DNA of 59,032 bases, the filler included, from Actinomycetota bacterium (GTDB lineage: Bacteria > Actinomycetota > Actinomycetes > JAKEEW01), in the NCBI GenBank assembly GCA_046725875.1. It is 4 parts of 4 records of this genome, joined end to end, with 100 filler letters (N's around TTAATTAATTAA, not from the genome) between each part and the next. Parts side by side here need not be neighbours in the genome. Positions count along the whole stretch, not along the records: positions 13,718 to 35,324 come from JBKOZJ010000173.1; 3 more parts are not named here. The stretch is one strand, 5' to 3'. The translations under genes were made by a program, and so were the position numbers. Under the pieces are notes generated by a model. That model had not been told where the DNA came from. It was given only the letters and a program-made list of their open reading frames with translations, and ran no database searches. Of the stretch, positions 4,881 through 42,013 are shown one piece after another (position 1 is the first letter of the stretch; every line of letters begins with the position of its first letter).

Positions 4881-4898
4881 GCCGCGATACCCCTCGAG

Positions 4899-7129: not shown

Positions 7130-7365
7130 TCCTCGCCCGCCAGGTCGGATGATGGGTGGGATGAGGACCGTCGCGGCGTCGATGACGGCTATAGACATCG
7201 GCCCCGCGGGACGGACTCGGCCTGTACTTGATTCCGGCCGGCGGGCGGCAGTGTCGGCGGGGACGGCCGTAAGTGCTTATGTCATCACGGTCGCTGTGGC
7301 TGCGCCCGCTCCGGCGCTCACCGATGTCGTGGGCTGGATGAGCAAGCGCCCGGTCCGCAACAAGT
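7130..7365 (+). other. Orphan IS110 left-end-like structured sequence
   Basis: 28/32 nt match between 7156-7187 and 5826-5857, shared TCCTCGCCC..GGGATGAGGA hairpin, further long-range complementary segments; no transposase follows. Confidence 0.5.
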
Positions 7366-7546
7366 CATGGATGAGTGGTTTTCAGCCGCTGGCGGCCGAG
7401 CGTCGCGCGGCTCTCGTCGACAGGCCGGCCCCGGCACGAACCCGTCGCCCCACCGGCCGTTTACACTCGACGACTGGGTAGACGCTGGCGGCGGGCGCCC
7501 GGAACGAGCGCCCCTGGTCGGGAGACCCTCGCGGGAGGGCAGCACC

Positions 7547-8596
7547 ATGAAGATCGACGTGGGGGCGGAGAACCCGGTCGAACGGCTGGCGCTGAGGCTG
7601 GGCTTGGTGCCCAAGCCGGCATTCCACACGCTCGTGGCGGTGCTGGCCGCCCGGACCGTGATGGTCGCCACCAAGCTCGGGGTCTTCGAGACGTTGGAGC
7701 AGAAGCCGCTGACTGCGACAGAGGTGGCAACGCGACTCGGGACCGAGCGCGGGGCGACCCGGAAGCTTCTGAACGCCCTGACCGGGCTCGGTTACCTACG
7801 ACTGACCGGCGATACGTTCGCGCTGTCCTCCGACGCCCGCCGGTGGCTTGTCTCGGCCAGCCCGCGATCGCTGCGCGACTGGGTCCTGGAGCAGGAGTCG
7901 CTGGAGTGGCGGTGGCTCGAACACCTCGAGGACTTCCTCCGCACGGGCCATAACGTCCAGATTCACAACGACCTCTCCGACGAGATGTGGCGGCTCTACC
8001 AGCGCGGCATGCGCAGCGTCGCCGGCCTTTCCGCCGCCGAGGTGGCTCGCCGCGTGCCGGTACCCAAAGGGGCCCGCCAGATGCTGGACATCGGCGGCTC
8101 GCACGGCTACCACTCGGTGGTCATCTGCCGCCGCCACCCCGGTCTGCGGTCGGTCGTCCTCGACCTTCCCCAGGCGATCCGCCACGCCGCTCCGTTGCTG
8201 GCCAACGAAGGGATGGGCGACCGCGTGGTGCACCGCGCCGGAGACGCCACCACCGACGACTTCGGAACCGCGACGTTCGACCTCGTGTACACCGCCAACG
8301 CCGCTCACCACTTCGATGAACCGACCAACCGCGACCTCGCTCGGCGAGCGGCTCGGGCCCTGCGCCCGGGCGGCTTCTTCGTCATCGTCGATTTCGTCCG
8401 GCCGCGCTCACCGAGGAAGGCCGGGCAGGTCGGCACACTCAACGCCCTGTTCTTCGCGCTGACCAGCGCCGCCGACACGTGGTCCACCGAGGAGATGGCC
8501 CGATGGCAGCGCGACGCCGGATTGCAGCCACGCAAACCGATCCGCCTGCGCACCGCGCCTGACACAGCGATCCAAGCCTCAGTCAAACCAAGTTAA
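7547..8596 (+). CDS. SAM-dependent O-methyltransferase (dimerisation domain plus Methyltransf_2)
   Basis: N-terminal LGVF..L...LTA.EVA winged helix, MLDIGGSHG, DLP, GD, HHF; GGGAGG SD. Confidence 0.9.
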   Translation: MKIDVGAENPVERLALRLGLVPKPAFHTLVAVLAARTVMVATKLGVFETLEQKPLTATEVATRLGTERGATRKLLNALTGLGYLRLTGDTFALSSDARRWLVSASPRSLRDWVLEQESLEWRWLEHLEDFLRTGHNVQIHNDLSDEMWRLYQRGMRSVAGLSAAEVARRVPVPKGARQMLDIGGSHGYHSVVICRRHPGLRSVVLDLPQAIRHAAPLLANEGMGDRVVHRAGDATTDDFGTATFDLVYTANAAHHFDEPTNRDLARRAARALRPGGFFVIVDFVRPRSPRKAGQVGTLNALFFALTSAADTWSTEEMARWQRDAGLQPRKPIRLRTAPDTAIQASVKPS

Positions 8597-8794
8597 GCCT
8601 CGAACACACACCCCGACCCCAGCGTCATCCGTACGCTCGAGCGCTGCGCCGCCTGTTCAACCGCTTCCTCGGTCAGCTCCACCACTGGCTGACCACCGGT
8701 CAGCACTACACGCAGGTCTCAGCCTTCCCCACCGAACAGGTGATCCGTCAACGCCAACGCCGCGCGGTGAACGGCCCGCGTGGGCAGCCGATGT

Positions 8795-8929
8795 GAGAGC
8801 AAGACACGCAGGTCGGATCCGGTGTGTTCCCTTAAACCGACCCAGATAGGTGCCGACCGCTAGTTTCAGCAGGTCCGCAGATGGGACAGCGGAGCCGGTC
8901 GAGCCCGGCGACAACAACGAAGTGGTCAT
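8795..8929 (-). pseudogene. Tyrosine recombinase/integrase N-terminal remnant
   Basis: LKLAVGTYLGRFKG, frameshift, HTGSDLRVLL, typical of the N-terminus of an actinobacterial integrase family; catalytic domain absent. Confidence 0.6.
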
Positions 8930-9075
8930 AACCGCAGCATGCGCGCAGATTGGCACCCTGCTGACCAGCCCGCAGCAGCATGTGAGTGCGCTGTGCAGAG
9001 GAGCGAAGGCGCGCTAAGGATGCCGGGCTAGCGGCGCGCGTTCTAGGTGCGCGTCGTGCCTCCGTCTTTGGATCG

Positions 9076-9933
9076 TTACTCGGCGGCGAGAGCACCGAGT
9101 GCCGGCCACGGTGGACCCTCGTGGAGCATGGTCAGGATGTCTCGGCCATGTTGGTGCCCATTCGGGAATTCATCGCGGACGTCCCATCGCCAGGCGGCGA
9201 CTATCGCAAGAACAAGCCGCCGACACTGCTCGAGTAGAACTTGATCGACATCGGGGTAGTGGGCGCTGACCTCGTCCGGCACGTGCGCAACATCGAATTC
9301 GATCGGCCCACGGCAACACGTTTCGAAGTCGATGAACCGCAGGCCATCCTGGGCGCTAAGAAGGTTGCCTGGATGCGGTTCGCCGTGCAGCAGCTGCTCG
9401 GCAGCTCCACGGCTGTTGATCTGTCGACGCGCGCTGTGCAGCGTGCTGACGAGGAGATGGCGATCGGCCTCAGCGAGCGCGGGGGTTGCGTCTCGGTTCG
9501 TGACCAGCCGCTCAGCCCCTGCGGCGCGTTCCATGAAGTGCGGCGTCGCGATCTCGACCCTTCGCATCCCCGCGTGCAGGCGATGAAGCGTGTCTGCGTA
9601 TTCGGCCGGTGAGTCCTGGCCGGGAGTCACTGCCTCGTAGTAGGTCCACAAGGTCACTGCGAAGCCGTCGCGTTCGTAGACGCGAGGTTCGACCCGGGGG
9701 TCAAGTGCCGCGACGGGACTCTCAAGTGCAGCGAGCCGCTGAGCGAGCTCGACCTCAAGCGCGGCGACCTCTCGCCCCACCAGTGCTACTCGAGCGAAGA
9801 CGTCACAAGGCAATAGACGCAGAGCGAGCTTGTTCGAGTTATGAATCACGACTACGTCGTTGACCCGCAGGTCCAGCGCTCCGGCAAGTGATGTCGCCGC
9901 GGCCATCGCACGCGAAACGAGCTTTGCCTCCAC
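9076..9933 (-). CDS. Aminoglycoside-phosphotransferase-family (APH-like) kinase
   Basis: LLHGEPHPGN Brenner-like motif, IDFE, GPIEFD; start uncertain (GTG 9933). Confidence 0.85.
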   Translation of the reverse strand: MEAKLVSRAMAAATSLAGALDLRVNDVVVIHNSNKLALRLLPCDVFARVALVGREVAALEVELAQRLAALESPVAALDPRVEPRVYERDGFAVTLWTYYEAVTPGQDSPAEYADTLHRLHAGMRRVEIATPHFMERAAGAERLVTNRDATPALAEADRHLLVSTLHSARRQINSRGAAEQLLHGEPHPGNLLSAQDGLRFIDFETCCRGPIEFDVAHVPDEVSAHYPDVDQVLLEQCRRLVLAIVAAWRWDVRDEFPNGHQHGRDILTMLHEGPPWPALGALAAE

Positions 9934-10334
9934 GAGTGGATCCTGACATTCGTAGAGCGTTCGATCGAACACCTCGAACGCTCGCTCATCGGCAGATCCG
10001 GGCGTGTGACACATTGTGCTCCCCCTCGCCTGTCACGGCCTCGAGCACCGACAGTTGCGGGGTCACGCGTAACACCGCCCCCTGTACGCACTGGACCGAT
10101 ACCGGGACCGGCCGGCATCTCGTTGCTGGCCGACCTGACGATCTCCATCCGCGACTCGTGGTGCTTATGCTCACCATTAGCGACTATGCCGCCACCGACG
10201 AAGTCATCGGCGTCGTGGATCTGGAGGCGGTCAACGGCGTGACCCGCGACCTCGGGCTCGCCGACAGCACATCGCGAGCGACTTACGCACCATGCTGGAT
10301 GAGTCGAGCACGCGAACAGGCGCGGGGGTGGTCG

Positions 10335-11810
10335 TCATGCGGCCTCTTCGAGTGCGACCATTTCGCCCTCGGCGGGCACCGCGTCCGCGTTGCCAGGTTG
10401 AGCCGACCTGACGAGCGTGATCGCGATCAGCACGCCGAGCAGGAGCAGTCCGGTGAGCGCGTAGAGGGCGGTTTGGAAGCCGTGGTCGAGCGCCACGGGG
10501 CTCGCCGCGCTGATGGCGGGATGGGAGTCGACGTAGTGGCTGGTCGAGGTGGCGGCGATCGTGCTCGCCGCGGCGAGGCCGATTGCACCGCCGATCTGGC
10601 GGCTGGTGTTGATTAGACCCGAGGCGACACCTGCATCGGAGCGCTCGACACCGGTGAGGCTCGCAATTGTCACCGGGACGAACGAGAGGCCCATGCCGGC
10701 GCCGCCGAGCACGAAGGCAGGGAAGAGATCCCACAAGTAGTGCCCATCTACGGGCAGCCGCGTGAGCAGCGCGACGGACACGGCGGAGACGAGCAGGCCG
10801 GCGGTCAGGGTCAGCCGCACGCCCAGGCGGCCCACGATCACCTGTGCGACGTTCGAGACCACGACGACCGTGAGCGCAAAGGCGGTGAACGCGGCGCCAC
10901 TTTCCAGGGCCGAGTAGCCCAGGACCTCCTGCAGGTAGAGCGTCAGCAGGAAGAACTCGGAGAAGGCGACCGCGCCGACGATGGCCATCGCAGCATTCGC
11001 GGACGCGAGCGTGCGTAGACGGAAGATCCGCAGTGGCAGCAGCGGTGAGGGCGAGCGCAGCTCGACGGCGATGAACACGAGCACGAGAGCTGCCGCGCCG
11101 GCGAGGAGTGCAAGCGTCGTATCGGCACCCCAGCCATCGCTGGTTGCACGGGTCAGCGCGTAGACGAGCAACATCAGACCGGCGGTGATGGAGGCGGCGC
11201 CGGGAAAGTCGAAGTGGCGATGCGCCAGGCTGGCGCGGCTCTCCTGGAGTAGCAGCGGCGCGAGCGCGATTGCGGCGACGCCGACCGGCACGTTGATGAA
11301 GAAGATCCACGACCAGCTCAGGTATGACGTGAGCAACCCACCGAGCAGAACGCCAGCGGCGGCGCCGCTCCCTGATGCGGCGCCGTAGACCCCAAGCGCG
11401 AGATTACGTTCGCGGCCCTCCGCAAACGTCGTCATGAGCAGCGACAGCGCAGCCGGGGCGAGCAACGCGCCGCCGAGCCCCTGCACCGCGCGGAATGCGA
11501 TCAGCGAGCCCTCCGACCAGGCGAGGCCGCACAGGAGTGAGCTCGCGGCGAAGAGGGCAAGCCCGGCCTCAAACAGCCTGCGACGCCCGAGCAGATCGGC
11601 GAGCCGGCCGCCCAGGAGCAGGGCCCCACCAAAGAAGATCGCGTAGGCGGTGATGACCCACTGCAGGTTGGTCTGGGAGAAATCGAGATCTGCCTTGATC
11701 GAGGGCAGTGCCACGTTCACGATCGCAACGTCGAGAATGACCATGAACTGCGCCGTGACGATCAAAGCAAGCGCGCTCCAACGCCGGTCGCCCTTCGTGG
11801 TAAGACTCAC
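10335..11810 (-). CDS. DHA2 (EmrB/QacA-like) 14-TM MFS transporter
   Basis: LDVAIVNVALP, GRLADLLGRRR, WSWIFFINVPVG; AGGGAGG SD before GTG. Confidence 0.93.
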   Translation of the reverse strand: MSLTTKGDRRWSALALIVTAQFMVILDVAIVNVALPSIKADLDFSQTNLQWVITAYAIFFGGALLLGGRLADLLGRRRLFEAGLALFAASSLLCGLAWSEGSLIAFRAVQGLGGALLAPAALSLLMTTFAEGRERNLALGVYGAASGSGAAAGVLLGGLLTSYLSWSWIFFINVPVGVAAIALAPLLLQESRASLAHRHFDFPGAASITAGLMLLVYALTRATSDGWGADTTLALLAGAAALVLVFIAVELRSPSPLLPLRIFRLRTLASANAAMAIVGAVAFSEFFLLTLYLQEVLGYSALESGAAFTAFALTVVVVSNVAQVIVGRLGVRLTLTAGLLVSAVSVALLTRLPVDGHYLWDLFPAFVLGGAGMGLSFVPVTIASLTGVERSDAGVASGLINTSRQIGGAIGLAAASTIAATSTSHYVDSHPAISAASPVALDHGFQTALYALTGLLLLGVLIAITLVRSAQPGNADAVPAEGEMVALEEAA

Positions 11811-11829
11811 GTTGGTGTCCTCCCTAATC

Positions 11830-11844
11830 GTTGATGGCATCAAC
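11830..11844. promoter_or_regulatory. Putative MarR operator
   Basis: Perfect inverted repeat GTTGATG-G-CATCAAC between divergent MFS and MarR genes. Confidence 0.65.
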
Positions 11845-11885
11845 TGTATAGCAGGACAATCCTTGGTTGCGCTACTCTATTCCCG

Positions 11886-12392
11886 ATGACTGTCACCAGC
11901 CCGCCAGCGCCGGCGTCGACGGTTCCTCAGCTGCCTGAGGAGCTCGTCGCGTCCACCATGTTCCTGCTGAAGCGCCTTGGCTTTGCCGCCAGGGAGCGGG
12001 CGATGACAGCGTACGAGGGGACGGGCCTCCACCCCTACCACTACGCCGTCTTGCTCGTACTCGGCGAGGGTTCGCGCGAGACGCAGGGCGCGATCGCCGA
12101 CGCCCTCGGCTACGACCGCGGCCAGTTGGTTGGACTGCTCGACGAGCTCGAGGAGCAGGGACTCGTCGAGCGCCGGCGCGACCCCAACGACCGCCGCCGG
12201 CATCTCGTCCGCCTCACCCCGGACGGCAGGCGAACGCTGCGGCGGCTACGTGCACTCGCGCGTCAGATCGAGGACGACTTCCTAGCTCCCCTCAGCGACA
12301 AAGAGCGCGCGAACCTGCACACACTCCTGCTCCGCCTCGCCGAGAAACACGAGCCACGGTGTGCGGGCCTGACATCGTCCGCGTCCACCTGA
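11886..12392 (+). CDS. MarR-family regulator
   Basis: LEEQGLVERRRDPNDRRRHLVRLTPDG winged-helix signature. Confidence 0.93.
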   Translation: MTVTSPPAPASTVPQLPEELVASTMFLLKRLGFAARERAMTAYEGTGLHPYHYAVLLVLGEGSRETQGAIADALGYDRGQLVGLLDELEEQGLVERRRDPNDRRRHLVRLTPDGRRTLRRLRALARQIEDDFLAPLSDKERANLHTLLLRLAEKHEPRCAGLTSSAST

Positions 12393-12468
12393 GCTTTGCC
12401 TGGCCTAACGAGGTACCGTCTCACTAGTCAGGTGCCGTGCACTGGATTCTTTGGCTGACCGTTGTCAG

Positions 12469-12630
12469 CCGCTGCAGGAGCGGCGCCGCCGGGTGGATCA
12501 GGCGTTGTTCGCGGTGATGATGGAGGCCAACCTGCACGGCGTGGACGACCGGGTGCGGGCGTTGGGCGCCGACTCGGGATCTCCAAGTCGAGGTGTCCCG
12601 GATCTGTGCTGACCTCGACGTCGAGGTGCC
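12469..12630 (+). pseudogene. IS256-family transposase remnant
   Basis: ERRRRVDQALFAVMMEANLHGV..DD.VRALGADSG, ISKS, EVSRICADLDVEV across frameshifts. Confidence 0.8.
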
Positions 12631-12683
12631 ACCGCGTGGACGCAATGCCGGACGGTCGCGGTATGAACCGACCTGGACGGTTG

Positions 12684-13547
12684 TTACGTCGGGACGGGTT
12701 CGGATGTGTTCGTCCGATGGACGAACTCTGTGATCACCGGCCAGAAGCGGTCCGGTGCGTCCAGCCAGGTGAAGTGGCCGGCTGCGGGAACGACCTCGAG
12801 CCGGGCGATGCCGTCCGGCAGGGCGGTGACCGTCTCGTCTGCGGCGGCGATGGGTGTCACCGGGTCGAGCTCGCCGACCGACACCAGCGTAGGGGCGTCG
12901 ACTCGGCTCAGCTGGTCGAGGATGTCGAGACGGCGGATCAGATCCATGCCGTTCGTGTTGAGCTCGAGATTCTTCGGCACCCGCGCGTGGCGCTGTTGGT
13001 CCGGGCGGTGCGGGCCGAAGGCGGCGAAGACGCGAGCCCACTCTCGGTCGGACACCTCCTCGCCGGTGTAGCTGCGGTCGGCGAGCTGCGCGATCTCGTC
13101 ACCCGCGACGCGGCGGAAGGACTCGACCAGGCGCTGGTGGTGCCAGCGCGCGAATCCCGACTGGATGATGAGCCCGGCGGCGTGCCCCGGGTGGCGGGCG
13201 CCGTACAACAGGACCACCGGCCCGCCCATCGAGTGCCCGAACACGATCGGGCGGTCGATCCCGACGGCGTCGCAGAAGTGGCGTACGTCGTCCGCGCAGC
13301 TCTCGAAGCTCCACGCGGCCGGGTCGCCCCAGGCGGACCGGCCGTGCCCGCGCAGATCGAGGTAGACGACCTGCGCGTGTTCGGCGAGCCGGGCGAAGTC
13401 CGGTTTGAGGTACGAGTGGTCGTAGACCCCGGGCCCGCCGTGGACCAGCAGGACCGTCGGGCGCCGCCGCAGCTCGCTTCCGTCCGGCACGAGCGCCGGC
13501 CCGGCCACGTCGAACCACAGTCGTGTCCCGTTCACGTCGATGTGCAT
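12684..13547 (-). CDS. Alpha/beta hydrolase (proline iminopeptidase-like)
   Basis: HGGPG, DLRGHGRS, GHSMGG, D and GH catalytic motifs; GGAGG SD. Confidence 0.9.
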   Translation of the reverse strand: MHIDVNGTRLWFDVAGPALVPDGSELRRRPTVLLVHGGPGVYDHSYLKPDFARLAEHAQVVYLDLRGHGRSAWGDPAAWSFESCADDVRHFCDAVGIDRPIVFGHSMGGPVVLLYGARHPGHAAGLIIQSGFARWHHQRLVESFRRVAGDEIAQLADRSYTGEEVSDREWARVFAAFGPHRPDQQRHARVPKNLELNTNGMDLIRRLDILDQLSRVDAPTLVSVGELDPVTPIAAADETVTALPDGIARLEVVPAAGHFTWLDAPDRFWPVITEFVHRTNTSEPVPT

Positions 13548-13617
13548 CGTGCTGTTCCTCCAGTCATCCCGGCCCTGGCCGCCGACGTACCCGATTCGGC
13601 GGCTGGCGTCTGAACGC

Positions 13618-13717
13618 NNNNNNNNNNNNNNNNNNNNNNNNNNNNNNNNNNNNNNNNNNNNTTAATTAATTAANNNNNNNNNNNNNNNNNNNNNNNNNNN
13701 NNNNNNNNNNNNNNNNN
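13618..13717. other. Artificial contig linker
   Basis: 44 N + TTAATTAATTAA (stops in six frames) + 44 N. Confidence 0.98.
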
Positions 13718-21474: not shown

Positions 21475-21607
21475 ATGCGAACTGGCGTCCTACCTTGCAC
21501 AGGACCGCACTGCGCCATGCCGCGTAAGGTGCTTTGCGCCCGGTCGCGGGGGCGCGAACGGGGCGAATCGGGCAGCTGGAACCGCCTACCGGGCGTAAAG
21601 CCGGTTG

Positions 21608-23272
<1,665 letters not shown>

Positions 23273-23391
23273 GCGTCCAGCTTAGGAGGCGACCCTCACT
23301 ATCTGCACAACGAAGATCGGAGATCGGTCGGTGGTGCGGCGCCGCGCGCTCGGGGAGCTGGGCGGGTGCCGGTCGATGCGAGGATCGGCGG

Positions 23392-24093
23392 ATGAGTGAC
23401 AGGGTCGGTCCGGAGCCGCAGTACGAAGTGTTCGCCGACGAGTTCCTCGACCACGCCCTTGATAGCTTCTACAACGCGCACTACGACCGGCCGGTCTGTT
23501 TGGACCTGCTTGGCGATGTCCTCGGACGCCGGGTGCTGGACGCCGCGTGTGGTCCCGGCCTGTACGCGGAGGTGCTGGTGGCCCGCGGCGCGCAGGTCAT
23601 CGGGTTCGATCACAGCCCCCGCATGATCGACCTCTGCCGTGAGCGGGTCCCGTCGGGTGAGTTCCGCGTTCACGACCTAGCGAACCCCTTGGACTGGCTG
23701 CCCGACTCCTCCGTCGACCTGGTCCTGCTCGCGTTGGCGATCGAGTACGTCGACGACCGGATCGCGGCGCTGCGCGAGCTGCACCGTGTGTTGCGTCCCG
23801 GCGGGGCGCTTGTCCTGTCGCGGCAGCACCCAACTGGTGAGTGGCTGCGGCACGGCGGCAGCTACTTCGACGTCCGCGTCATCAAGGAGGTGTGGAGCAA
23901 GGGCTGGACGGTGCACTACTGGCTGGCACCCCTCGAGCGGACATGCGAAGAACTGTTCTATGCCGGCTTCCTCATCGAAAGGCTGCTCGAACCGCGTCCG
24001 ACGCCAACGGCCGCCGAGATCGACCCCGCGGACTATCAACGCCTGTCTCGCGAGCCGAGAGGCTTCCTGGCCCTGCGGGCCGTGCCACGCTAA
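23392..24093 (+). CDS. Class I SAM-dependent methyltransferase
   Basis: VLDAACGPG, ELHRVLRPGG. Confidence 0.9.
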   Translation: MSDRVGPEPQYEVFADEFLDHALDSFYNAHYDRPVCLDLLGDVLGRRVLDAACGPGLYAEVLVARGAQVIGFDHSPRMIDLCRERVPSGEFRVHDLANPLDWLPDSSVDLVLLALAIEYVDDRIAALRELHRVLRPGGALVLSRQHPTGEWLRHGGSYFDVRVIKEVWSKGWTVHYWLAPLERTCEELFYAGFLIERLLEPRPTPTAAEIDPADYQRLSREPRGFLALRAVPR

Positions 24094-26278: not shown

Positions 26279-28267
26279 CTATGACGATTGAGCCGCGGAC
26301 GCAGGCGCTTCTGCTGGAGTGTCAGTGTGCTGGTGGTTCGCCATGGGCAAGTGACCGACTCCGGCGAGTTCGAGGCGGGACGATGGAGGCTGCACCGTCG
26401 GAGCCTCAGCGGAGCCGTTATGAGCAACCGGTACCAACTCTGGTTTTAGGCCGCTGTCGGTGTAGATGGTCCGGCCCGGCTCCTGAGTGTCGTCGTGCGA
26501 GCGCCAGTGCATGACGTAGGTGAGCCATTCGTCACCGCGCAGCGCTTTAAGAATCAAAGGCAGTCTGTGGCCCTCGTCCGGCAATTGCTGGATCACGAGA
26601 TCTCTGCCATGTGCGGTTCTACTTGCTGCGAGCAGCTCGGTTGCAGTCCTAATGCCCGCACGACGCAGCTGTCGGCGGTCGGCAGTGGTGACGTGCTGGT
26701 AGAGCAGCGCTTGGTCAAGCCAGTCGATCAACCGTGAGGCAGGAATCCGCGAACTCAGCATGAGGTCGACAAGGTCGTGCCTGGCCAGGGCCTGGATGCT
26801 GGTGATCCCTTCCTCAGCTAGCCGGGTCCGCTCGTAGATGCTGATGCCGTCCAGGGCGAGGAGCGGGGAACGGTCCTCGAACTCGTTGAGCGGCTCCGTG
26901 CCTGAGCTGCTCGTCGCTTGACCGCCGGCAGCTTGACGGTTGTCGGCTGACCGCCGAGAGACCCATCGCAGCTTTACCTGCGGGGGGACATCGCGGATAT
27001 ACCGCAGCACGGTGTCCGGAACGATGCCAGCCAGGAAGGATGCAGCCAGAACCCACGTCGGTGCGCCGAACAGTCCCTGCAGCATCCAGGCGAGGATGAC
27101 GGCGACGAGGATACGGACGGTCACGACATTGTAGGTCTTCGGCCGCAGGTCGCCTCGGACGTAGCCGAGCAGTGCCACCTGAGCGGCGAAGAAGTATGCG
27201 CCGAGGAACGCGCAGGTCATTGGCGTGAAGGCAGGCTGAATGAACTGCTGGATGAGCGAAAGCTCCTGGGCCGGACCTGTGTTGCTGACAAGGCTGCCGT
27301 TCCGGACCGAGACGTCAGCGGGGGTGTTGAGCAGGACCGCGATCCAGCCCAGGGCGAGCAAAAAGGTGACGACGTACAAAGGGCTGCGAGTCGTCGTCCG
27401 TTTCTTCTCGGTTGCCACCCCGCTGTCAAAGGACGCTCCGTAGAATTCCTCCACCCGCCGGCCGTACTTTGCATCAACGTCGGACAGGGTGTGCAGAGTT
27501 GGGTCTAGCCGGAACGCGTGGTGCACCCAGCGATCCATGAGCGTGGTGAGCTTCTCGCGATCGAACTGGAAATACATGAGGCCGGGAATCAACGCCAAGA
27601 CGACCACCAGGGCGATCTGAAGGCCGCGAGCCACAATGACCGGATAGCTGCTCTCGTCACCGACGAGATCAACATGCACCCAGCCAGACACCGACAGAAT
27701 CTCAGATAGCTCGCTGCCGTAGTAGATGGCTACCGCCGGGCCGAGGATGCCGACCGCCAGGACGATCAGCAGAGCGAGCTTCTGCAGAGCGCTTAGGGCC
27801 ACATCCTTGGTGAACTGCCAGCCACTGAGGCGCCGACCAACCTCACGGGTCACCGCTGGATCGTCGTCTGTCTCATATACGGGGCGATTCAGCGCGGCGG
27901 CAGTAACGATGCAGAGGACGGCGATGACTCCCGCCGCAGCGGCAAGCCACCACCGCCGCGGATCCGACAGCACCATCGCAACGGCCCCGACCACGGACAC
28001 AACGGCGATCAACGTCAGCCAGGCGGTAGCCCAGACCCTCGTCGACCTGACCGGCTCCTTCTCCCAAGCAACAGCGCGGTCGGTATACGCATGCACGGCC
28101 GCCTGACCAAGGTACTGGTAGGGCCGATAATCGACGCGAACCTGCTGCAGGGGAGCCAGCTTCAGCGTATGCGTCCCAATGATCTCCAGCCTTCTCGGCA
28201 TCTGGTTCCGGATCAGGAAGGTCGACCGCTCTTCAACCTCTGGCAAGAACTTATTGCGGACGGACAT
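26279..28267 (-). CDS. Multi-pass membrane protein with C-terminal helix-hairpin-helix-like region, function unknown
   Basis: 662-aa ORF, about 8 hydrophobic segments, LDGIS..RLAEEGITSIQALA and LRRAGIRTATELL repeats; GGGGGGA SD. Confidence 0.75.
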   Translation of the reverse strand: MSVRNKFLPEVEERSTFLIRNQMPRRLEIIGTHTLKLAPLQQVRVDYRPYQYLGQAAVHAYTDRAVAWEKEPVRSTRVWATAWLTLIAVVSVVGAVAMVLSDPRRWWLAAAAGVIAVLCIVTAAALNRPVYETDDDPAVTREVGRRLSGWQFTKDVALSALQKLALLIVLAVGILGPAVAIYYGSELSEILSVSGWVHVDLVGDESSYPVIVARGLQIALVVVLALIPGLMYFQFDREKLTTLMDRWVHHAFRLDPTLHTLSDVDAKYGRRVEEFYGASFDSGVATEKKRTTTRSPLYVVTFLLALGWIAVLLNTPADVSVRNGSLVSNTGPAQELSLIQQFIQPAFTPMTCAFLGAYFFAAQVALLGYVRGDLRPKTYNVVTVRILVAVILAWMLQGLFGAPTWVLAASFLAGIVPDTVLRYIRDVPPQVKLRWVSRRSADNRQAAGGQATSSSGTEPLNEFEDRSPLLALDGISIYERTRLAEEGITSIQALARHDLVDLMLSSRIPASRLIDWLDQALLYQHVTTADRRQLRRAGIRTATELLAASRTAHGRDLVIQQLPDEGHRLPLILKALRGDEWLTYVMHWRSHDDTQEPGRTIYTDSGLKPELVPVAHNGSAEAPTVQPPSSRLELAGVGHLPMANHQHTDTPAEAPASAAQSS

Positions 28268-29426: not shown

Positions 29427-30107
29427 CTACGAAAGGAAGCCATGGAGTCGATCGGCGAGCTCTTTGGGCCGGCTCAAGGCGACGCAGTGCCCGCTATCGA
29501 TCTCGTCGGGAGTGATTCCCAGCCGTTCTGTGACGACCCGACGCAACCAGTCGACGGGAAACAGGCGGTCGTCGCGACACACCAACACCCTCGTCGGAAC
29601 GTCCGGCCACGCCCTCAGCGGCGAAGGCTCCGTCATGCGCGCTTCGGACTGGTGCCGCCCGCGCCGCACGGCCTCCGCCGCGAGGTCGGCGGGAACGTCG
29701 TGATAGAAGGTGGCGATCGTCCCCGCCTGCTCCTCATCCACGGGGTCACCACGTTCGGCGTCCTCGGATCTCGACGCCGCATAGTGCGTGTTTGCCCAAT
29801 AATCGTTCGGCGCCTCACCCGGAGCGGGGACCATCGCCGCCACCAACACCATCAGATCAACCGGCACCCGTTCGCACACCAGCGGCGCGGTGAACCCACC
29901 GAAGGACTGCGCCACCAGCACGAGATCCCGGCGGTCTCCGATTGCTGTGAGCACCGTATCGGCGTACTCGGGCAATCCGGCGGAGTCCTCGTCGCACGGC
30001 AGATCCATGGCGACGACCTCGTGGCCGCGATCACGAAGCTCGGGCTCCAGAAGATGCCAGTACCAAGCGGTGTCCCCCGCACCGTGGATCAACACGAACG
30101 TGGCCAA
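29427..30107 (-). CDS. Alpha/beta hydrolase (Abhydrolase_6-like)
   Basis: TFVLIHGAG, AQSFGG, DSGH; TTG start after GAGGAGG. Confidence 0.88.
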   Translation of the reverse strand: MATFVLIHGAGDTAWYWHLLEPELRDRGHEVVAMDLPCDEDSAGLPEYADTVLTAIGDRRDLVLVAQSFGGFTAPLVCERVPVDLMVLVAAMVPAPGEAPNDYWANTHYAASRSEDAERGDPVDEEQAGTIATFYHDVPADLAAEAVRRGRHQSEARMTEPSPLRAWPDVPTRVLVCRDDRLFPVDWLRRVVTERLGITPDEIDSGHCVALSRPKELADRLHGFLS

Positions 30108-30182
30108 ACCAGCCTCCTCGACTCGGTCAATAAACAAGGACTCCTCCTCGACCCAAAACTCATCGAAAGCCAGTGCTCTGCC

Positions 30183-30188
30183 TATGAT
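30183..30188 (+). promoter_or_regulatory. -10 box for a leaderless transcript
   Basis: TATGAT lies 7 nt upstream of the uORF GTG at 30196. Confidence 0.6.
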
Positions 30189-30195
30189 TGACAGC

Positions 30196-30279
30196 GTGAG
30201 CATCACGCGTACTCAGCGATTTGGTCGCCCCGGCTGGTGGAGGAACGCCACCCGGGCGACTGCTACGCCCACCAACTGA
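30196..30279 (+). CDS. Putative Trp-containing leader peptide MSITRTQRFGRPGWWRNATRATATPTN
   Basis: Leaderless GTG, tandem TGG TGG at 30235-30240, stop 82 nt before the ligase start, codons embedded in alternative helices. Confidence 0.65.
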   Translation: MSITRTQRFGRPGWWRNATRATATPTN

Positions 30280-30355
30280 CACCCTGTGGCTCACAGCTCC
30301 GCCTCCGCTGGCCGGGGACTTCTGCACCCACCGTCCCCACTCCTGCCTCGGAGGC
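30224..30355 (+). promoter_or_regulatory. Putative ribosome-mediated attenuator / SD sequestrator
   Basis: 30224-30240 pairs with 30248-30260; 30228-30243 pairs with 30302-30317; 30301-30319 pairs with 30333-30338 and the SD 30349-30355. Confidence 0.6.
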
Positions 30356-30361
30356 TTAGTC

Positions 30362-31594
30362 ATGTCCCCCACCCTCTTGCGCCCCGATGCGCTCGGGCGA
30401 GATTTGTCGATCCGGGATCTCACGGATCCCACGCAGGGACCACATGCTGTCCAGTTGCTCCTCGAGGAGATCGTTTCGTCGCTGCAGCGGGGGTGGCCGC
30501 AGACCGAGGTCCAGGTCGTACTCGGCGACCGCGTCGTGACCCTCGCCGACAACTACTGGCATCTCGGGTACGCAGCGGACGCGGTGACCGTCGACTCCCG
30601 CTATACGCGCTACGTCGATGACAGCCGCGTCCTCCGCAGCCACTCCTCGGCGCTAATCCCGCCCGCCTTGCGGGCCCTGGCCAAATCCGCACCTGCTGAA
30701 CCAGCCGGCATGGACGTCCTGCTCGTCTGCCCGGGCCTCTGCTATCGCCGGGATGCGGTGGACCGGTTGCACACCGGCACGCCACATCAAGTCGATTTGT
30801 GGCGGGTCAGCAATCGGCGCCACCTTGCTGAAACCGACCTCGAGGAAATGATCACCAGCGTGGTGACAGGTGCATTGCCCAATGCGTCGTGGCGTACGGT
30901 CGCGACCGGGCATCCGTACACCATCGGTGGTCGTCAGATCGATGCGGCGATCCCGACCGAGAGCGGGCACGCCGGCGGACCGGACGGGATCGACGGGGAA
31001 CAGTGGGTCGAGATCGGCGAATGCGGCCTCGCCGCGCCGGCGGTGCTTTCAGGCTCTGGCCTCCGTTCCGCCGGCTCCCAGCTCGGAGCCGGAAGCGGTT
31101 CCCAGACGCCGCACTCAGACATGCCAAGTCGGACATGGACTGGGCTTGCGATGGGACTCGGCCTGGACCGGCTGCTCATGCTCCGCAAGGGGATTCCGGA
31201 CATCCGGTTGCTTCGCTCGTCCGATCCGCGGATTGCTGCCCAGTTGCTGGATCTCCGGCCCTATCAGGCAGTCTCCACGCTCCCGCCGGTCCATCGCGAC
31301 GTGTCTGTCGCGGTGGACGCTGATGCCGAGATCAGCGCCGAGGCTCTCGGGGATCGGGTGAGGGAGGCGCTAGGCGCCGATGCCGACGCCGTCGAGTCGG
31401 TCGCCCTGCTTGCCGTCGCCAGCTATGCCGACTTGCCTGACGTCGCACGGGGGCGGCTGGAGATGCAACCAGGGCAGCGGAATCTGCTGACGCGCATCGT
31501 GCTGCGGCCTTGGGATCGTACGCTGACCGACGCCGAGGCGAACCAGCTGCGGGACCGAATCTATGTCGCGCTCCATCAAGGGGGTGGTGGGTAG
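30362..31594 (+). CDS. srmL: PheS-related single-chain class II aaRS-like ligase with FDX-ACB domain (SrmL-like family, name recalled)
   Basis: Motif 2 YRRDAVDRLH..HQVD, WVEIGECG, motif 3 GLAMGLGLDRLLML, IPDIRLL, C-terminal RDVS...RTLTDAEAN; GGAGG SD. Confidence 0.85.
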   Translation: MSPTLLRPDALGRDLSIRDLTDPTQGPHAVQLLLEEIVSSLQRGWPQTEVQVVLGDRVVTLADNYWHLGYAADAVTVDSRYTRYVDDSRVLRSHSSALIPPALRALAKSAPAEPAGMDVLLVCPGLCYRRDAVDRLHTGTPHQVDLWRVSNRRHLAETDLEEMITSVVTGALPNASWRTVATGHPYTIGGRQIDAAIPTESGHAGGPDGIDGEQWVEIGECGLAAPAVLSGSGLRSAGSQLGAGSGSQTPHSDMPSRTWTGLAMGLGLDRLLMLRKGIPDIRLLRSSDPRIAAQLLDLRPYQAVSTLPPVHRDVSVAVDADAEISAEALGDRVREALGADADAVESVALLAVASYADLPDVARGRLEMQPGQRNLLTRIVLRPWDRTLTDAEANQLRDRIYVALHQGGGG

Positions 31595-31650: not shown

Positions 31651-31961
31651 CGGGGCGAGCGGGTCATCGCCGCAGCCGTCGGCGTCGCCGCCAAGCTCGA
31701 CATCGGCCCAACGCCGGATGAGGCCGAGGCACTCTTGCTCACTCGCGGTGGTGCTCCCCTTCTGACTCGGTCCGGTCTGTCGCTGCCATGGCATCTCGGT
31801 GGTCACGTGGATGGATCTCGCGGACCGCGGGAATGGCCGCAGTTGATCTAGTACCGCTTGTGCGACCACGCCAGCGCGGATCGGCCACCCCCGCAGCGAA
31901 CCTGCGCAAACCCGCCGAAAACCCGTTGGTCGCCCCTCCAGACGTGTTCATACTGCTCACC

Positions 31962-32492
31962 ATGGATCCGGTGACCCTCGAGACGACACGCCTTCTGCTG
32001 CGGTCCTTCACGCCTTCCGACGCCGACATGGTGTACGAAGCCTGCCAAGACGCCGACATTCAGTACTACACCCCGGTGCCGTCGCCGTACCGGCGCGAGG
32101 ATGCCGAAAAATACGTCGGAGAGGAAGTGCCCAAGGGCTGGGCCACGGACTACGACTACATCCTGGGCGCCTTCCGCAAGGACAACGGAGCCCTCGTCGG
32201 CTCCTTCTGCTTGACCAGGCGGGGTCAAGGCGTCTACGAACTCGGCTACTGGGCGGCCAAGGAGCAGCGCGGCCATGGGTACTCCACGGAGGCCGCCCGA
32301 GCGCTGTGCTTCTGGGGCTTCACTGCACTGAAGGCACACCGGATCGAGTGGTGGGCGATGGTCGGGAATGCCGCCTCCCGCGCACTCGCGGAGAAGCTCG
32401 GCTTCACCCTCGAAGGGACCCTTCGCAGCCGCGGCGTCGCCAATGATGGCCAACCGCACGACTGGTGGGTGGGCGGACTACTCAAGCCCTGA
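31962..32492 (+). CDS. GNAT N-acetyltransferase (RimJ/RimL-like)
   Basis: LETTRLLLRSF, ELGYW..RGHGY, N.ASRALAEKLGF..EG. Confidence 0.92.
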   Translation: MDPVTLETTRLLLRSFTPSDADMVYEACQDADIQYYTPVPSPYRREDAEKYVGEEVPKGWATDYDYILGAFRKDNGALVGSFCLTRRGQGVYELGYWAAKEQRGHGYSTEAARALCFWGFTALKAHRIEWWAMVGNAASRALAEKLGFTLEGTLRSRGVANDGQPHDWWVGGLLKP

Positions 32493-32661: not shown

Positions 32662-33627
32662 ATGGATACTGCCGATCGCTATCTTGACTACTCCGGTCGT
32701 GAAGACCGGCTCGGCGGTGGGGCTCGCCGCATTCCCATCGATACGCCTGGCGGCCAGTTCGCCGTGTGGACCAAGCGGATCGGCAACAACCCGGAGCTCA
32801 AGGTCCTGCTGCTCCATGGCGGACCGGGGGCCACGCACGAATACTTGGAGGCCTGCGACAGCTACCTTCCAGCCGCAGGGATCGAGTACTACTACTACGA
32901 TCAGCTCGGCTCGGGTTTCAGTGACCAACCCGACGACCCGTTGCTGTGGGAGCTGGACCGGTTTGTCGACGAGGTCGAGCAGGTCCGCAGCGCTCTTGGC
33001 CTGGGCCGTGAGAACTTCGTCCTCTACGGCCAGTCGTGGGGCGGGATGCTCGCCATCGAGTACGCCTTGGCACACCAGGAGCGGCTACGCGGGCTGGTGA
33101 TCTCGAACATGATGGCGAGCGCACCTGCATACCAGGCGTACGCCGAGCAAGTGCTCATGCCAGCGATGGACCAAGATGCGCTGGCCGAGATCAAGGCCCT
33201 GGAGGCGACCGGCGACACCGACAACCCGCGCTACATGCAGCTGCTGATTCCGCATTACTACGAACGCCACTTGCTGCGACTGCCTGCAGACACCTGGCCG
33301 GAGCCAACGCAGCGTGGATTGGCGCACATCAACCGGAAGATCTACGTGCCAATGCAGGGACCAAGCGAACTCGGGATGAGCCAAGACGCCAAGCTAGCCA
33401 ACTGGGACCGGGTCGCCGACCTGCACCAGGTCGACGTTCCGACGCTGATCATCGGCGCCCGTTACGACACCATGGATCCGGCACACCTGGAGATGATGGC
33501 CAGACTCTTGCCACGCGGTCGCTATCTCTACTGTCCCGAGGGAAGCCATCTGGCCATGTACGACGATCAGCAGACCTACTTCGCTGGCCTGATCGACTTC
33601 CTTCGGGGGCTGCCGACCCGCTCCTGA
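32662..33627 (+). CDS. Proline iminopeptidase-family hydrolase
   Basis: HGGPG, YDQLGSG, GQSWGG, YDTM, GSH. Confidence 0.92.
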   Translation: MDTADRYLDYSGREDRLGGGARRIPIDTPGGQFAVWTKRIGNNPELKVLLLHGGPGATHEYLEACDSYLPAAGIEYYYYDQLGSGFSDQPDDPLLWELDRFVDEVEQVRSALGLGRENFVLYGQSWGGMLAIEYALAHQERLRGLVISNMMASAPAYQAYAEQVLMPAMDQDALAEIKALEATGDTDNPRYMQLLIPHYYERHLLRLPADTWPEPTQRGLAHINRKIYVPMQGPSELGMSQDAKLANWDRVADLHQVDVPTLIIGARYDTMDPAHLEMMARLLPRGRYLYCPEGSHLAMYDDQQTYFAGLIDFLRGLPTRS

Positions 33628-35565: not shown

Positions 35566-35641
35566 TGGAGCCGACGGTGGGATTCGAACCCACACCCTCC
35601 CGATTACAAGTCGGGTGCGCTGCCAGTTGCGCCACGCCGGC
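35566..35641 (-). tRNA. tRNA-Thr (anticodon TGT)
   Basis: 76-nt cloverleaf GCCGGCG...CCCGA-CTTGTAA-TCGGG...GGTTCGAATCC...CGTCGGC-T-CCA. Confidence 0.96.
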
Positions 35642-39472: not shown

Positions 39473-42013
39473 TCACCGTCGCAGGTCGAGCGCGATATCG
39501 AGCGTTGGGGCCGAGTGGGTGAGGGCGCCAACCGCAAGGTAATCGATGCCCGTTGCCGCGACCTTGCCGGCAGACGCGAGGCTTAGCCCCCCGCTGGCTT
39601 CGAGCTTGGCGCGCCCACCGACCTGCGACACTGCTTCACGCATCGCGTCGACTGACATGTTGTCGAGGAGCACCAGGTCGGCACCGGCGTCCACCGCGGC
39701 CATCGCTTCGGCCACCGAGTCCGCCTCCACCTCGACGGGAACATCGGGAAACTGCTCGCGCACCGCCTTGAACGCCTCGACGATCCCGCCGGCGGCGAGA
39801 ATGTGGTTGTCCTTGACCAGCGCCGCGTCGGACAGTGCCATCCGGTGGTTCTCACCACCGCCACAGCGCACCGCGTACTTCTCGAGAAGACGGAGACCTG
39901 GCGTGGTCTTGCGAGTGTCCCGAACGACCGCACCCGTCCCGGCGACTGCATCAACCCAGCGCCGAGTCAGAGTCGCGATGCCGGACAGCCGGCAGAGCAG
40001 GTTCAGGGCGGTACGCTCACCGAGCAACAGGTCACGAGTACGACCATTCACGGTCATGACCACGTCACCGCGTTCGACCCGGCTACCGTCGGCGAGCGCG
40101 TAATCGACCCTGAGAGCACCCTGACTGGCGTACTCGAGGACCGCGCGGGCCACCGGTAGGCCGGCCACCACCCCGTCGGCGCGCGCTACGAAGTCCGCGG
40201 TGGAGACGTGGCCGGCCGGGATTGTTGCTTGGCTGGTCAGGTCGATGCCGCCCCCGAGATCCTCGGCGATGGCGGCGGCAACGAGGTCTAGGACGTGAGC
40301 CGGCTCCAGCCCGCTCGCGGCAAGCTCGGCGGAGAGGTCGGCCGACGGGACCTGTCGCATCGGGAGCTTTGGAACGTAGGTTGTGGTGACCATGCCGTCG
40401 ACGAGTCTGATGTCGAGATGACCCAGCCAGCGTGCATCGTCCCGCTCGGGCCAGTCCTCCCGCCAGTGGGAACCTCGGGTCTCCGCTCGCCTAAGCGCGC
40501 CGGCGACCAGTGCCTGCGCGACGGTGACGAGGTTCGTCGCCTCCCAGGTCTCGGTGCAAGCGTCGAACGTTTGGGACCGGCCAAGGTCGGTTAGGGTTTG
40601 CTGTGTATTGCGCAAGCCGCGCTCGTCTCTGAGTACGCCAGCGTTCATCGTCATCGCACGCTGCAGCCGGCTCCGTGCCCCCGCGGCGAACAGTCCGGCC
40701 CGCCTGGTGTCTTCGACCGGTGGACGAGCCGGGAACAGGCCGCCGATGATGTCCATGGCGATCCGCTCGGCGAACACAAGACCCTCGAGCAGCGAATTCG
40801 ACGCTAGACGGTTCGCGCCATGTACTCCGGTGCACGCCACCTCGCCACAGGCGTAGAGGCCGGGTACGGAGGTACGGCCGCGAAGGTCGGTGCGCACCCC
40901 ACCGCTCGCGTAGTGGCACGCCGGGGCAACCGGTATCAGCTCGCTCGCCGGGTCGATGCCGTGCTCGCGGCAGCTCGCGAAGATGGTCGGAAAACGAACC
41001 CGCCACTTCTCCTCGCCGAAGTGACGTGCGTCCAGCCACACGTGGTCGGTGCCGGACTCCCGCATCATCCGCATGATTGCCTTGGCGACGACATCGCGCG
41101 GCGCGAGGTCGGCGAGCTCGTGTATGTCCTGCATGAAGCGGTTACCGGAGTCGTCGACCAGGAACGCCCCCTCGCCGCGCACCGCTTCGGATACCAGCGG
41201 CTGCTGGCCGCGGGCCAACCCGCCCAGCCATAGCACGGTCGGGTGAAACTGGACGAACTCGAGGTCGCGCACCACGGCGCCGGCGCGCAGCGCGAGGGCG
41301 ACGCCGTCGCCCGTCGACACCACCGGGTTGGTGGTCGCCGAATAGATCTGGCCCATTCCGCCGGTGGCGAGCACCACCGCCCGGGCCTGGATCGCGCCGA
41401 CCCCGTCGCGAGCGCCTTCGCCCATCACATGCAGTGTCACGCCGGCCGCTCGGCCGGTGCTGTCGAGCAGCAGGTCCAGGGCAAGCGCATGCTCGATGAT
41501 CTCGATCTCCGGGTGGAGACGGACCGCCTCCGCGAGCGCCCGCTCGATCTCCGCCCCGGTCGCGTCGCCGCCCGCATGGGCGATGCGGTCGCGGTGATGG
41601 CCGCCCTCCCGGCCGAGCGCGATGCTGCCGTCGCTTGCGCGGTCGAAGCGCGTGCCGAGCGCGATGAGGCGGCGCACGGCCTCTGGCCCCTCGGTGGTGA
41701 GCAGCCGCACGGCTGCCTCGTCGCACAGGCCAACCCCGGCAGTGAGTGTGTCCGCCTCGTGATCGGCCGCCGAGTCTCCCGGTCCGAGCGCCGCCGCGAT
41801 CCCGCCCTGGGCCCATCGCGTTGATCCGGCAGAGAGGACATCCTTGGTGACGACCAGCACCCGGCCGGACGGTGTCGCGCGCAGCGCGGCGGTCAGGCCG
41901 GCGATGCCGGAGCCGATGACGACGACGTCGGCGGACACGACCCAGCCCGGCGGCGGCGCGAGGAGCCGGTGCGGCAGCCCTGGATTCGACGTGATTGGGG
42001 TCTTGCCGTTCAT
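39473..42013 (-). CDS. nadB-nadC: Fused L-aspartate oxidase / quinolinate phosphoribosyltransferase (NadB-NadC)
   Basis: GSGIAG, AQGGIA, QFHPT, GVHGANRLASNSLLE followed in frame by ERTALN, DTRKTTPG, VKDNH, LLDN, EASGG. Confidence 0.9.
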   Translation of the reverse strand: MNGKTPITSNPGLPHRLLAPPPGWVVSADVVVIGSGIAGLTAALRATPSGRVLVVTKDVLSAGSTRWAQGGIAAALGPGDSAADHEADTLTAGVGLCDEAAVRLLTTEGPEAVRRLIALGTRFDRASDGSIALGREGGHHRDRIAHAGGDATGAEIERALAEAVRLHPEIEIIEHALALDLLLDSTGRAAGVTLHVMGEGARDGVGAIQARAVVLATGGMGQIYSATTNPVVSTGDGVALALRAGAVVRDLEFVQFHPTVLWLGGLARGQQPLVSEAVRGEGAFLVDDSGNRFMQDIHELADLAPRDVVAKAIMRMMRESGTDHVWLDARHFGEEKWRVRFPTIFASCREHGIDPASELIPVAPACHYASGGVRTDLRGRTSVPGLYACGEVACTGVHGANRLASNSLLEGLVFAERIAMDIIGGLFPARPPVEDTRRAGLFAAGARSRLQRAMTMNAGVLRDERGLRNTQQTLTDLGRSQTFDACTETWEATNLVTVAQALVAGALRRAETRGSHWREDWPERDDARWLGHLDIRLVDGMVTTTYVPKLPMRQVPSADLSAELAASGLEPAHVLDLVAAAIAEDLGGGIDLTSQATIPAGHVSTADFVARADGVVAGLPVARAVLEYASQGALRVDYALADGSRVERGDVVMTVNGRTRDLLLGERTALNLLCRLSGIATLTRRWVDAVAGTGAVVRDTRKTTPGLRLLEKYAVRCGGGENHRMALSDAALVKDNHILAAGGIVEAFKAVREQFPDVPVEVEADSVAEAMAAVDAGADLVLLDNMSVDAMREAVSQVGGRAKLEASGGLSLASAGKVAATGIDYLAVGALTHSAPTLDIALDLRR

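Follow-up and report, generated by a model that had tools for sequence, protein, structure and literature searches.

SrmL, a PheS-related single-chain ligase with the build of mitochondrial phenylalanyl-tRNA synthetase and altered amino acid and anticodon recognition sites

The gene srmL (30362..31594, + strand; 410 aa plus stop) lies in a 59,032-nucleotide stretch of DNA (the window) from an Actinomycetota bacterium (assembly GCA_046725875.1) and codes for a PheS-related ligase. We propose, at about even confidence, that its product is an accessory, ATP-dependent, amino-acid-activating ligase which is built as a single chain like mitochondrial phenylalanyl-tRNA synthetase (mtPheRS), uses an RNA acceptor and has both of its recognition sites rebuilt. 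The catalytic arginines are invariant in the family, the amino acid pocket and the anticodon-binding domain carry family-specific changes, and the genome has a canonical phenylalanyl-tRNA synthetase (PheRS) besides.

Family membership and architecture of SrmL

The protein matches the NCBIfam model NF051887, ‘PheS-related mystery ligase SrmL’, over its full length with 459.1 bits (E 9e-138; cut-off 300). Judged by its sequence, it is a member of an already named, functionally uncharacterised family and does not represent a new one; no functional study of the SrmL family was found among the matches listed in the literature searched. The mitochondrial PheRS model TIGR00469 gives 82 bits (cut-off 258.35) and the PheS model TIGR00468 gives 72.1 bits (cut-off 237.45). 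The best stretch with the latter covers profile positions 146–292 only, and the N-terminal arm of PheS was not detected. Members of the SrmL family are single chains of about 350–430 residues in which a PheS-type core is followed by a C-terminal domain resembling FDX-ACB, the ferredoxin-fold anticodon-binding domain, and the protein from the window has this arrangement. Its class II (PheS-type) catalytic core spans residues 83–294 (30608..31243, +; PF01409, tRNA-synt_2d, 1.7e-23, 83.8 bits), and a divergent FDX-ACB domain spans residues 305–405 (31274..31576, +; PF03147, 6.2e-6). The latter match, with 27.0 bits, stays below the gathering score of 31.1; most relatives carry a precomputed PF03147 label.

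The initial annotation had likened the architecture to that of monomeric mtPheRS, and structural comparison bears this out. Searched with Foldseek, an AlphaFold2 model of SrmL (pLDDT 92.2, pTM 0.90) had human mtPheRS (3cmq) as its top match (E 3.6e-26, TM 0.69/0.70), the alignment extending over both domains; alpha chains of bacterial PheS matched the core only (query-normalised TM 0.46–0.51). A family profile built from 47 sequences also found human mtPheRS best, over both domains (4e-45), next to bacterial PheS alpha chains (1.9e-41 to 1.3e-25). Its weaker matches were the C-terminal domain of the PheT beta chain (5.1e-8) and the class IIc enzymes SepRS (2.6e-9) and PylRS (2.4e-7), the last two far below PheRS and without an FDX-ACB domain in those matches.

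According to excerpts of PMC3275996, mtPheRS is a chimera in which the catalytic module of the alpha subunit is joined to the B8 domain of the beta subunit, and it is the only known case of a class II synthetase catalytic module which is active as a monomer. SrmL resembles the mitochondrial enzyme (human FARS2; 3cmq, 3tup) in being a single chain with a PheS-type module and a B8-type FDX-ACB domain, and the two share YRRD, HxS, Q and motif 3. It differs in having HPY for FPF, PHQ.D for FHQ.E, GLAMG for GWAFG, a Glu (E220) for a Gly and a 10-residue insert in the ACB domain, and in being a bacterial protein found alongside complete PheS and PheT. With bacterial PheS alpha it has in common the class IIc core, the arginines of motifs 2 and 3 and the PheS residues T187, A263 and G265, but it carries its own ACB domain and is not reliant on PheT.

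About 120 close homologues with 54–80% identity were found in Kribbella, Actinopolymorpha, Kitasatospora and related taxa or metagenome-assembled genomes, several of them named SrmL by NCBI. Clustered at 50% identity, the homologues form 1145 clusters with E ≤ 0.001 and 168 with E ≤ 1e-30. A Patescibacteria-type clade, whose few named members are Nealsonbacteria and Harrisonbacteria, is about 42% identical to the SrmL of the window.

All position counts given below refer to a MAFFT alignment of 168 sequences, composed of 140 SrmL, 17 actinobacterial PheS and, from metagenome loci, 6 mitochondrial-like and 5 PheS-like proteins. The SrmL sequences comprise 41 of the 120 full-length actinobacterial ones (that of the window, P0002, and 40 taken at random), all 59 full-length ones (340–500 aa) among the 150 cluster representatives listed and 40 of the 113 full-length Patescibacteria-type ones, again taken at random. 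The PheS open reading frames (ORFs) were selected from 24 loci by the strings FPF and G.G.[ED]R; of the 18 that passed, one (542 aa) was dropped. This selection in itself produces the Phe in 17/17 PheS at columns 184 and 186; the other columns are not influenced by it. In a FastTree analysis of the core (198 columns; unrooted in effect), all 140 SrmL sequences are separated from PheS and the mitochondrial-like proteins by a long branch with support 1.0.

SrmL is an accessory protein

The source genome (3.76 Mb in 197 contigs, 89% complete) contains a canonical pheS–pheT pair on contig C37 (4650–8314), which is not the srmL contig. The pheS gene (C37:4650–5759) encodes YFPFTEPS and GFAFGMGLER and scores 329.7 bits with PF01409, and the overlapping pheT gene (5759–8314) scores 556.7 bits against a cut-off of 402.65. 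One tRNA-Phe(GAA) is present among the 41 predicted tRNAs, and no pheT was found beside srmL in the window. Because canonical pheS–pheT and tRNA-Phe(GAA) are encoded in the same genome, SrmL is an extra protein and not a replacement; it is accessory, not housekeeping. PheT also exceeded its cut-off in all five SrmL-bearing genomes checked (this one and those of Kribbella, Nocardia, Kitasatospora and Actinopolymorpha), and each of the other four contains two or more genes for class Ib synthetases.

Across an even phylum sample of 401 genomes (15 of them flagged unpublished, none of these SrmL-positive), SrmL was over the cut-off in five. Two further genomes have split-frame copies, which are pseudogenes or assembly errors (G095:C9:83119–84184 and G080:C318:11812–12848; loci L199 and L200). 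Among seven genomes at the order level, G404 carries a 56%-identical SrmL on a contig whose 2.6 kb do not suffice to show the neighbourhood. The source genome also has a tRNA-SeC on contig C62. A 97-nt ‘tRNA-?(Ser|Pyl)’ with a four-base anticodon (gcta), reported by ARAGORN at C25:22526–22622, was rejected as a partner of SrmL; with its poor D-arm and 74% GC it is probably a false call.

The catalytic residues are conserved

All motif strings quoted in the initial annotation were found in the translation of 30362–31594 (+). Motif 2 (YRRDAVDRLH, Y128–H137; 30743..30772, +), quoted there as YRRD..D..H, contains R129, which is invariant in SrmL (140/140) as in PheS (17/17). Motif 3 (GLAMGLGLDR, G261–R270; 31142..31171, +), of which GLGLDR (G265–R270) had been quoted, contains R270, again present in 140/140 SrmL; L262 and M264 replace both Phe of GFAFG in this motif. 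The HTS of PheS has its equivalent in H94–S95–S96 (30641..30649, +), the beginning of HSSALI (H94–I99), where position 94 is His or Gln and position 96 Ser or Thr in SrmL and PheS alike. The alpha-amino-acid-binding positions of PheRS are thus kept in SrmL as H/Q94, S/T96 and Q143 (130/140), with D145 instead of Glu. Other retained residues are T187 (125/140), A263 (128/140), G265 (135/140) and G222 (139/140), and D131, H137, E217, G267 and D269 are also strongly conserved, in sequences down to 28% identity.

The invariant catalytic arginines, the kept positions for the alpha-amino and carboxyl groups and the purifying conservation down to 28% identity indicate a working amino-acid-activating enzyme, and SrmL is a real and probably active accessory ligase. 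The ATP-binding motifs had been described as intact. This is correct for the two arginines but not for the Phe of the motif 2 FHQ, found in 17/17 PheS, which is Pro in 123/140 SrmL and in the protein from the window (P141). We take this Phe to be the adenine-stacking residue in PheRS.

The amino acid pocket is remodelled throughout the family

HPY (H184–Y186) had been proposed to stand at the place of the FPF of PheRS. It lies at 30911–30919, the codon of H184 beginning at 30362 + 183 × 3 = 30911, and is part of HPYTIGGRQID (H184–D194; 30911..30943, +), which corresponds to the loop and strand FPFTEPSAEVD of PheS. Three alignments agree on this equivalence: phmmer sets ‘hpyt’ over ‘fpft’ of a PheS alpha-subunit structure (related entries are titled M. 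tuberculosis), the family profile sets ‘tehpYtee’ over ‘CYFPFTHP’ of human mtPheRS, and the 168-sequence MAFFT alignment has the same pairing. His occurs at position 184 in 128/140, Pro at 185 in 127/140 and Tyr at 186 in 136/140 SrmL. As HPY is kept in most of the 140 members, the motif is not due to chance.

Around this loop, further positions that do not vary in PheS have been exchanged. Within TPHQVDLW (T140–W147; 30779..30802, +), which includes the string PHQVD (P141–D145), the residues P141, D145, L146 and W147 replace Phe, Glu, Gly and Leu of PheS (17/17 each). D145 is found in 134/140 and W147 in 137/140 SrmL, and position 146 is Leu, Ile or Val in most of them. In EIGECG (E217–G222; 31010..31027, +), E220 (135/140) stands where PheS always has Gly (17/17). 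The two motif 3 positions with Phe in 17/17 PheS are L262 in 123/140 and M/L264 in 124/140 SrmL. K276 is found in 140/140 SrmL, at a position where PheS has His (12), Tyr (3), Leu (1) or Trp (1). With both Phe walls changed, two PheS-invariant glycines turned into Glu and an aliphatic residue, and a newly invariant Trp, unchanged specificity for Phe is unlikely, though this is not proof. It is plausible, from the sequence, that SrmL uses a different amino acid.

The C-terminal domain lacks the canonical anticodon strand

In the FDX-ACB domain, the strand VALLAVASY (V347–Y355; 31400..31426, +) replaces the LFDxY strand. The mitochondrial-like proteins have Asp at alignment column 351 and Tyr at column 353 (6/6 each), and the PheT of the same genome reads SLFDVY; in SrmL, column 351 is Ala, Gly or Ser and column 353 mostly Thr. 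The Asp and Tyr of LFDxY presumably contact anticodon base G34 in the Thermus thermophilus complex. In the closest clade, to which the SrmL of the window belongs, position 352 is Val where many NF051887 members have Glu.

The strand is followed by a family-specific insert, A356–Q372 (LP..A..RL....Q; 31427..31477, +). A helical insert had been suspected here from the string DLPDVARGRL (D357–L366), and the AlphaFold2 model does have a helix at 360–366; columns 359–368 are gaps in 6/6 mitochondrial-like proteins with a canonical domain. Conserved positions of the insert are P359 (117/140), A362 (114/140), R365 (118/140), L366 (120/140) and Q372 (112/140), and just behind it N374 (119/140). From these changes in the C-terminal domain, SrmL would seem to use some acceptor that is not recognised by a canonical reading of the GAA anticodon.

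The remodelling of the pocket and of the FDX-ACB domain, first described for the single protein, is thus family-wide and goes beyond what the initial annotation had recorded. As signature residues of SrmL we derived HPYT (H184-P-Y186-T), W147, E220, K276 and the ACB insert LP..A..RL. All are present in the protein from the window, and their frequencies across the family range from 112/140 to 140/140.

Together with P0005 and P0018, the protein from the window (P0002) forms the closest clade, which has two extra low-complexity loops compared with other NF051887 members. One, at residues 196–213 (30947..31000, +), is found in the closest relatives only and is poorly defined in the model (mean pLDDT 48 for block 201–210). 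The other, at residues 235–258 (31064..31135, +; pLDDT 58–72), is found only in these three proteins in the homologue alignment.

A second single-chain PheRS-like protein, of 380 aa, is encoded on the minus strand in six loci of the Patescibacteria-type clade (L115:8183–9325, L124:14805–15947, L125:1590–2732, L127:1953–3095, L136:11050–12192 and L154:14252–15394). It has FPYT, FHQ.DG, GWAFG and a canonical FDX-ACB domain without insert, and reaches 244.8 bits with TIGR00469, just below the cut-off of 258. This protein is a candidate for a monomeric, mitochondrial-type PheRS in bacteria.

Gene start and neighbourhood of srmL

The start codon of srmL is ATG 30362. It is preceded, 7 nt upstream, by a ribosome-binding site GGAGG (30350..30354, +) read from the sequence, and homologues share the MSPT... 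beginning. The TTG at 30221 chosen by the ORF finder (ORF 30221–31594, +) was rejected in favour of this ATG, which has both GGAGG and homologue support.

The window is a composite. The srmL contig (C173, 21,607 bp) covers positions 13718–35324 only, and positions 1–13717 and 35325–59032 belong to other contigs or are N, so that genes located there are not physical neighbours of srmL. The genes close to srmL code for an alpha/beta hydrolase (29427–30206, −), which is divergent from srmL, a GNAT protein of the Acetyltransf_3 type (31788–32492, +), which follows 194 bp downstream, and a proline-iminopeptidase-family hydrolase (32662–33627, +). These three immediate neighbours recur at no other SrmL locus examined. 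When 11 neighbours from the window were compared by tblastn with 80 SrmL loci (±8 kb), nine gave 0/80, and the other two gave one weak match each, a methyltransferase in L095 and an LLM protein in L091. Clustering of 1071 ORFs revealed Kribbella-internal synteny only. Pfam analysis of the two genes on either side in 17 diverse loci, and of 25 neighbouring ORFs (with one SrmL ORF) from six further loci, did not reveal a recurrent partner. The GNAT gene was rejected as a partner of SrmL, a GNAT being found within two genes in only 2/17 actinobacterial loci. The sole tRNA of the window, a tRNA-Thr (35566–35641), is located beyond the end of the srmL contig (35324) and is not a neighbour.

Two large ORFs of the window, 26279–28267 (−; 662 aa) and 21605–23395 (+; 596 aa), matched nothing in Pfam or NCBIfam at E ≤ 0.001; to judge by eye from its hydrophobic stretches, the 662-aa product may be a membrane protein. 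On another contig than srmL, the ORF 39473–42013 (−; 846 aa) comprises NadB (13–544) and NadC (578–843), an apparent nadB–nadC fusion, and coaX likewise lies outside the range of the srmL contig.

For the Patescibacteria-type relatives, 80 metagenome loci were analysed within ±10 kb. The most frequent neighbour is a gene for a radical SAM/SPASM protein about 2 kb away (28/80). An ORF of 81–89 aa is found adjacent upstream (16/80), and a class II LysRS-like gene occurs in 14/80. GNAT (cluster 4), Amidohydrolase_2 and LD-carboxypeptidase-like genes were found in 10/80 each, a dCTP-deaminase-like and a methyltransferase gene in 9/80 each and a DAP-decarboxylase-like gene in 8/80; an Acetyltransf_3 cluster is represented in three loci. 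A second SrmL paralogue is nearby in eight loci (clusters spanning more than 80 locus entries). Genes similar to pheS and pheT, or for a mitochondrial-like PheRS, are found within ±10 kb in some loci, pheT with a pheS-like gene in 5/80. These neighbourhoods look like housekeeping synteny in part (lysS, dcd, lysA, ldcA, pheST) and in part like a tailoring cassette (radical SAM, GNAT, amidohydrolase). As they come from distant relatives and none of these neighbours recurs by the actinobacterial genes, we use them as a lead only.

The 81–89-aa ORF (for example L155:1416–1679, +; alignment A4) has the conserved sequence SSSP.AA..M.F...D...AKAGRWLAVLRRDY..EY and occurs in two different gene contexts. 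The window lacks it, and neither Pfam nor NCBIfam has a match for it. In 9/15 pairs listed, the end of the ORF runs into the SrmL start with an overlap of at least 4 nt. Where a pheS-like gene accompanies pheT and SrmL (L119:19308–20351, −; L122:8476–9525, −; L190, L191 and L179), it encodes YYPEVEPG instead of YFPFTEPS, and the proteins of L119 and L122, the two inspected, have a Cys-rich insert. The L191 pair is just below the cut-offs (pheS-like 234.2 versus 237.45, pheT 363 versus 402.65).

Discussion

From the family membership, the architecture and the conservation pattern of SrmL we infer catalysis, the class of its substrate and an RNA acceptor. SrmL would bind an alpha-amino acid and form an aminoacyl-adenylate with ATP, and the aminoacyl group would then be passed to an RNA acceptor gripped by the C-terminal domain. 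In the pocket, His and Tyr stand in for the Phe walls, Glu and Leu/Ile/Val for the invariant glycines, and Trp and Lys are the newly invariant residues; in the C-terminal domain, the substitute for the LFDxY strand is followed by the conserved 10-residue helical insert. With both sites changed, SrmL probably uses something other than plain Phe, and its acceptor is unlikely to be recognised canonically through a GAA anticodon. Our best guess for the amino acid is an aromatic or polar-aromatic side chain. The earlier proposal of an active enzyme with altered specificity is partly supported, by the architecture, the arginines and the remodelled sites, but HPY alone is not diagnostic of a different amino acid.

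Several observations weigh against our proposal. The Pro at the FHQ Phe and the Glu at a PheS-invariant Gly mean that ATP binding could be altered or lost. The pocket-floor residues T187, A263 and G265 match PheS. The FDX-ACB match is below the gathering score, so that RNA binding is assumed from the fold alone. No conserved neighbour was found in Actinomycetota that would hint at a pathway, and no odd tRNA adjoins SrmL in the 34 loci scanned or in the window, none being consistent. Finally, in human cytosolic PheRS, according to excerpts of PMC3275996, Asn410 and Tyr412 take the places of Phe258 and Phe260 of T. thermophilus PheRS, and the enzyme still recognises Phe, by means of Tyr412 and a relocated aromatic residue, Phe438, at the position of Val286; the invariant glycines are described there as the floor of the PheRS pocket, which leaves room for Phe and ATP. 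As far as these excerpts go, the alpha subunits of eukaryotic and archaeal cytosolic PheRS are also without the FPF pair and set a precedent for a Tyr at the second position being compatible with Phe recognition. Counted along the G-x-G-M-V motif, the Phe438/Val286 position is approximately residue 224 of SrmL, which has Ala, Ile or Val there, and the cytosolic enzyme described is a heterotetramer without B8 domain, unlike SrmL.

This precedent bears on the possibility, improbable in our view, that SrmL is a second, monomeric PheRS which still attaches Phe to tRNA-Phe, for instance as an isoform for stress conditions, for back-up or for resistance to inhibitors. The architecture is that of the mitochondrial enzyme, which is fully active as a monomer, and Tyr at the second FPF position occurs in a genuine eukaryotic PheRS (both in excerpts of PMC3275996). 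The pocket floor is that of PheS, and the invariant W147 could restore an aromatic triad. However, such an isoform would have to accommodate ten family-specific replacements in or near the pocket, among them Glu and Leu/Ile/Val for invariant glycines, as well as the loss of the LFDxY Asp and Tyr and the added insert in the anticodon-binding domain. Scores far below the PheRS cut-offs (82 versus 258 with TIGR00469, 72 versus 237 with TIGR00468), the separate lineage on a long branch and the sporadic distribution also speak against it. We consider it very unlikely that SrmL lacks catalytic activity and serves in regulation or as a scaffold, a pseudo-synthetase in the manner of HisZ. The replaced FHQ Phe and the Glu at the PheS-invariant Gly would fit such a role, and the split-frame copies in two genomes of the phylum sample indicate that the gene is dispensable; but R129 and R270 are present in 140/140, and D131, H137, Q143, E217, G222, A263, G265, G267 and D269 are strongly conserved, as expected of a working active site.

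The nature of the acceptor is the other point to be weighed. Synthetase paralogues with acceptors other than tRNA exist, such as EpmA/PoxA, which acts on EF-P, and the amino-acid:carrier-protein ligases. SrmL might similarly activate an amino acid for a protein, a carrier protein or a small molecule, with the C-terminal domain as a protein- or ligand-binding module, a possibility we think rather unlikely. It would account for the replaced anticodon-recognition strand, the Pfam score below threshold and the lack of a dedicated tRNA nearby in the 34 loci and the window. The radical SAM/SPASM, GNAT and amidohydrolase genes of the Patescibacteria-type loci point in the same direction, and so does the small upstream ORF with its frequent overlap with the SrmL start. 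On the other hand, SrmL retains the ferredoxin fold as well as RTLT..EAN, a motif typical of FDX-ACB domains, and the neighbourhoods belong to relatives of about 42% identity, are partly housekeeping synteny (lysS-, dcd-, lysA- and ldcA-like genes, pheS/pheT) and have no counterpart among the genes found beside actinobacterial srmL genes. Within our proposal of an RNA acceptor, SrmL could be a new type of aminoacyl-RNA synthetase that attaches a non-Phe amino acid, polar aromatic or non-proteinogenic, to a dedicated tRNA or tRNA-like RNA outside ordinary translation. We regard this extended version as unlikely. If it applied, the enzyme might feed peptide or natural-product tailoring, a use at which the genes for radical SAM/SPASM, GNAT and amidohydrolase proteins beside srmL in the Patescibacteria-type relatives hint.

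SrmL is a widespread bacterial sister family with the build of mtPheRS, found in Actinomycetota and in Patescibacteria-type metagenome lineages, whose members have remodelled recognition sites and invariant catalytic arginines. The residue map (H184, Y186, W147, E220, L146, K276 and the ACB insert 356–372) is the practical output of the analysis and provides targets for mutagenesis and substrate screens. If SrmL still makes Phe-tRNA-Phe, it would represent a third solution for the recognition of Phe. If a different amino acid or RNA is charged, SrmL would be a natural orthogonal enzyme of the synthetase type and possibly part of a new route of aminoacyl transfer.

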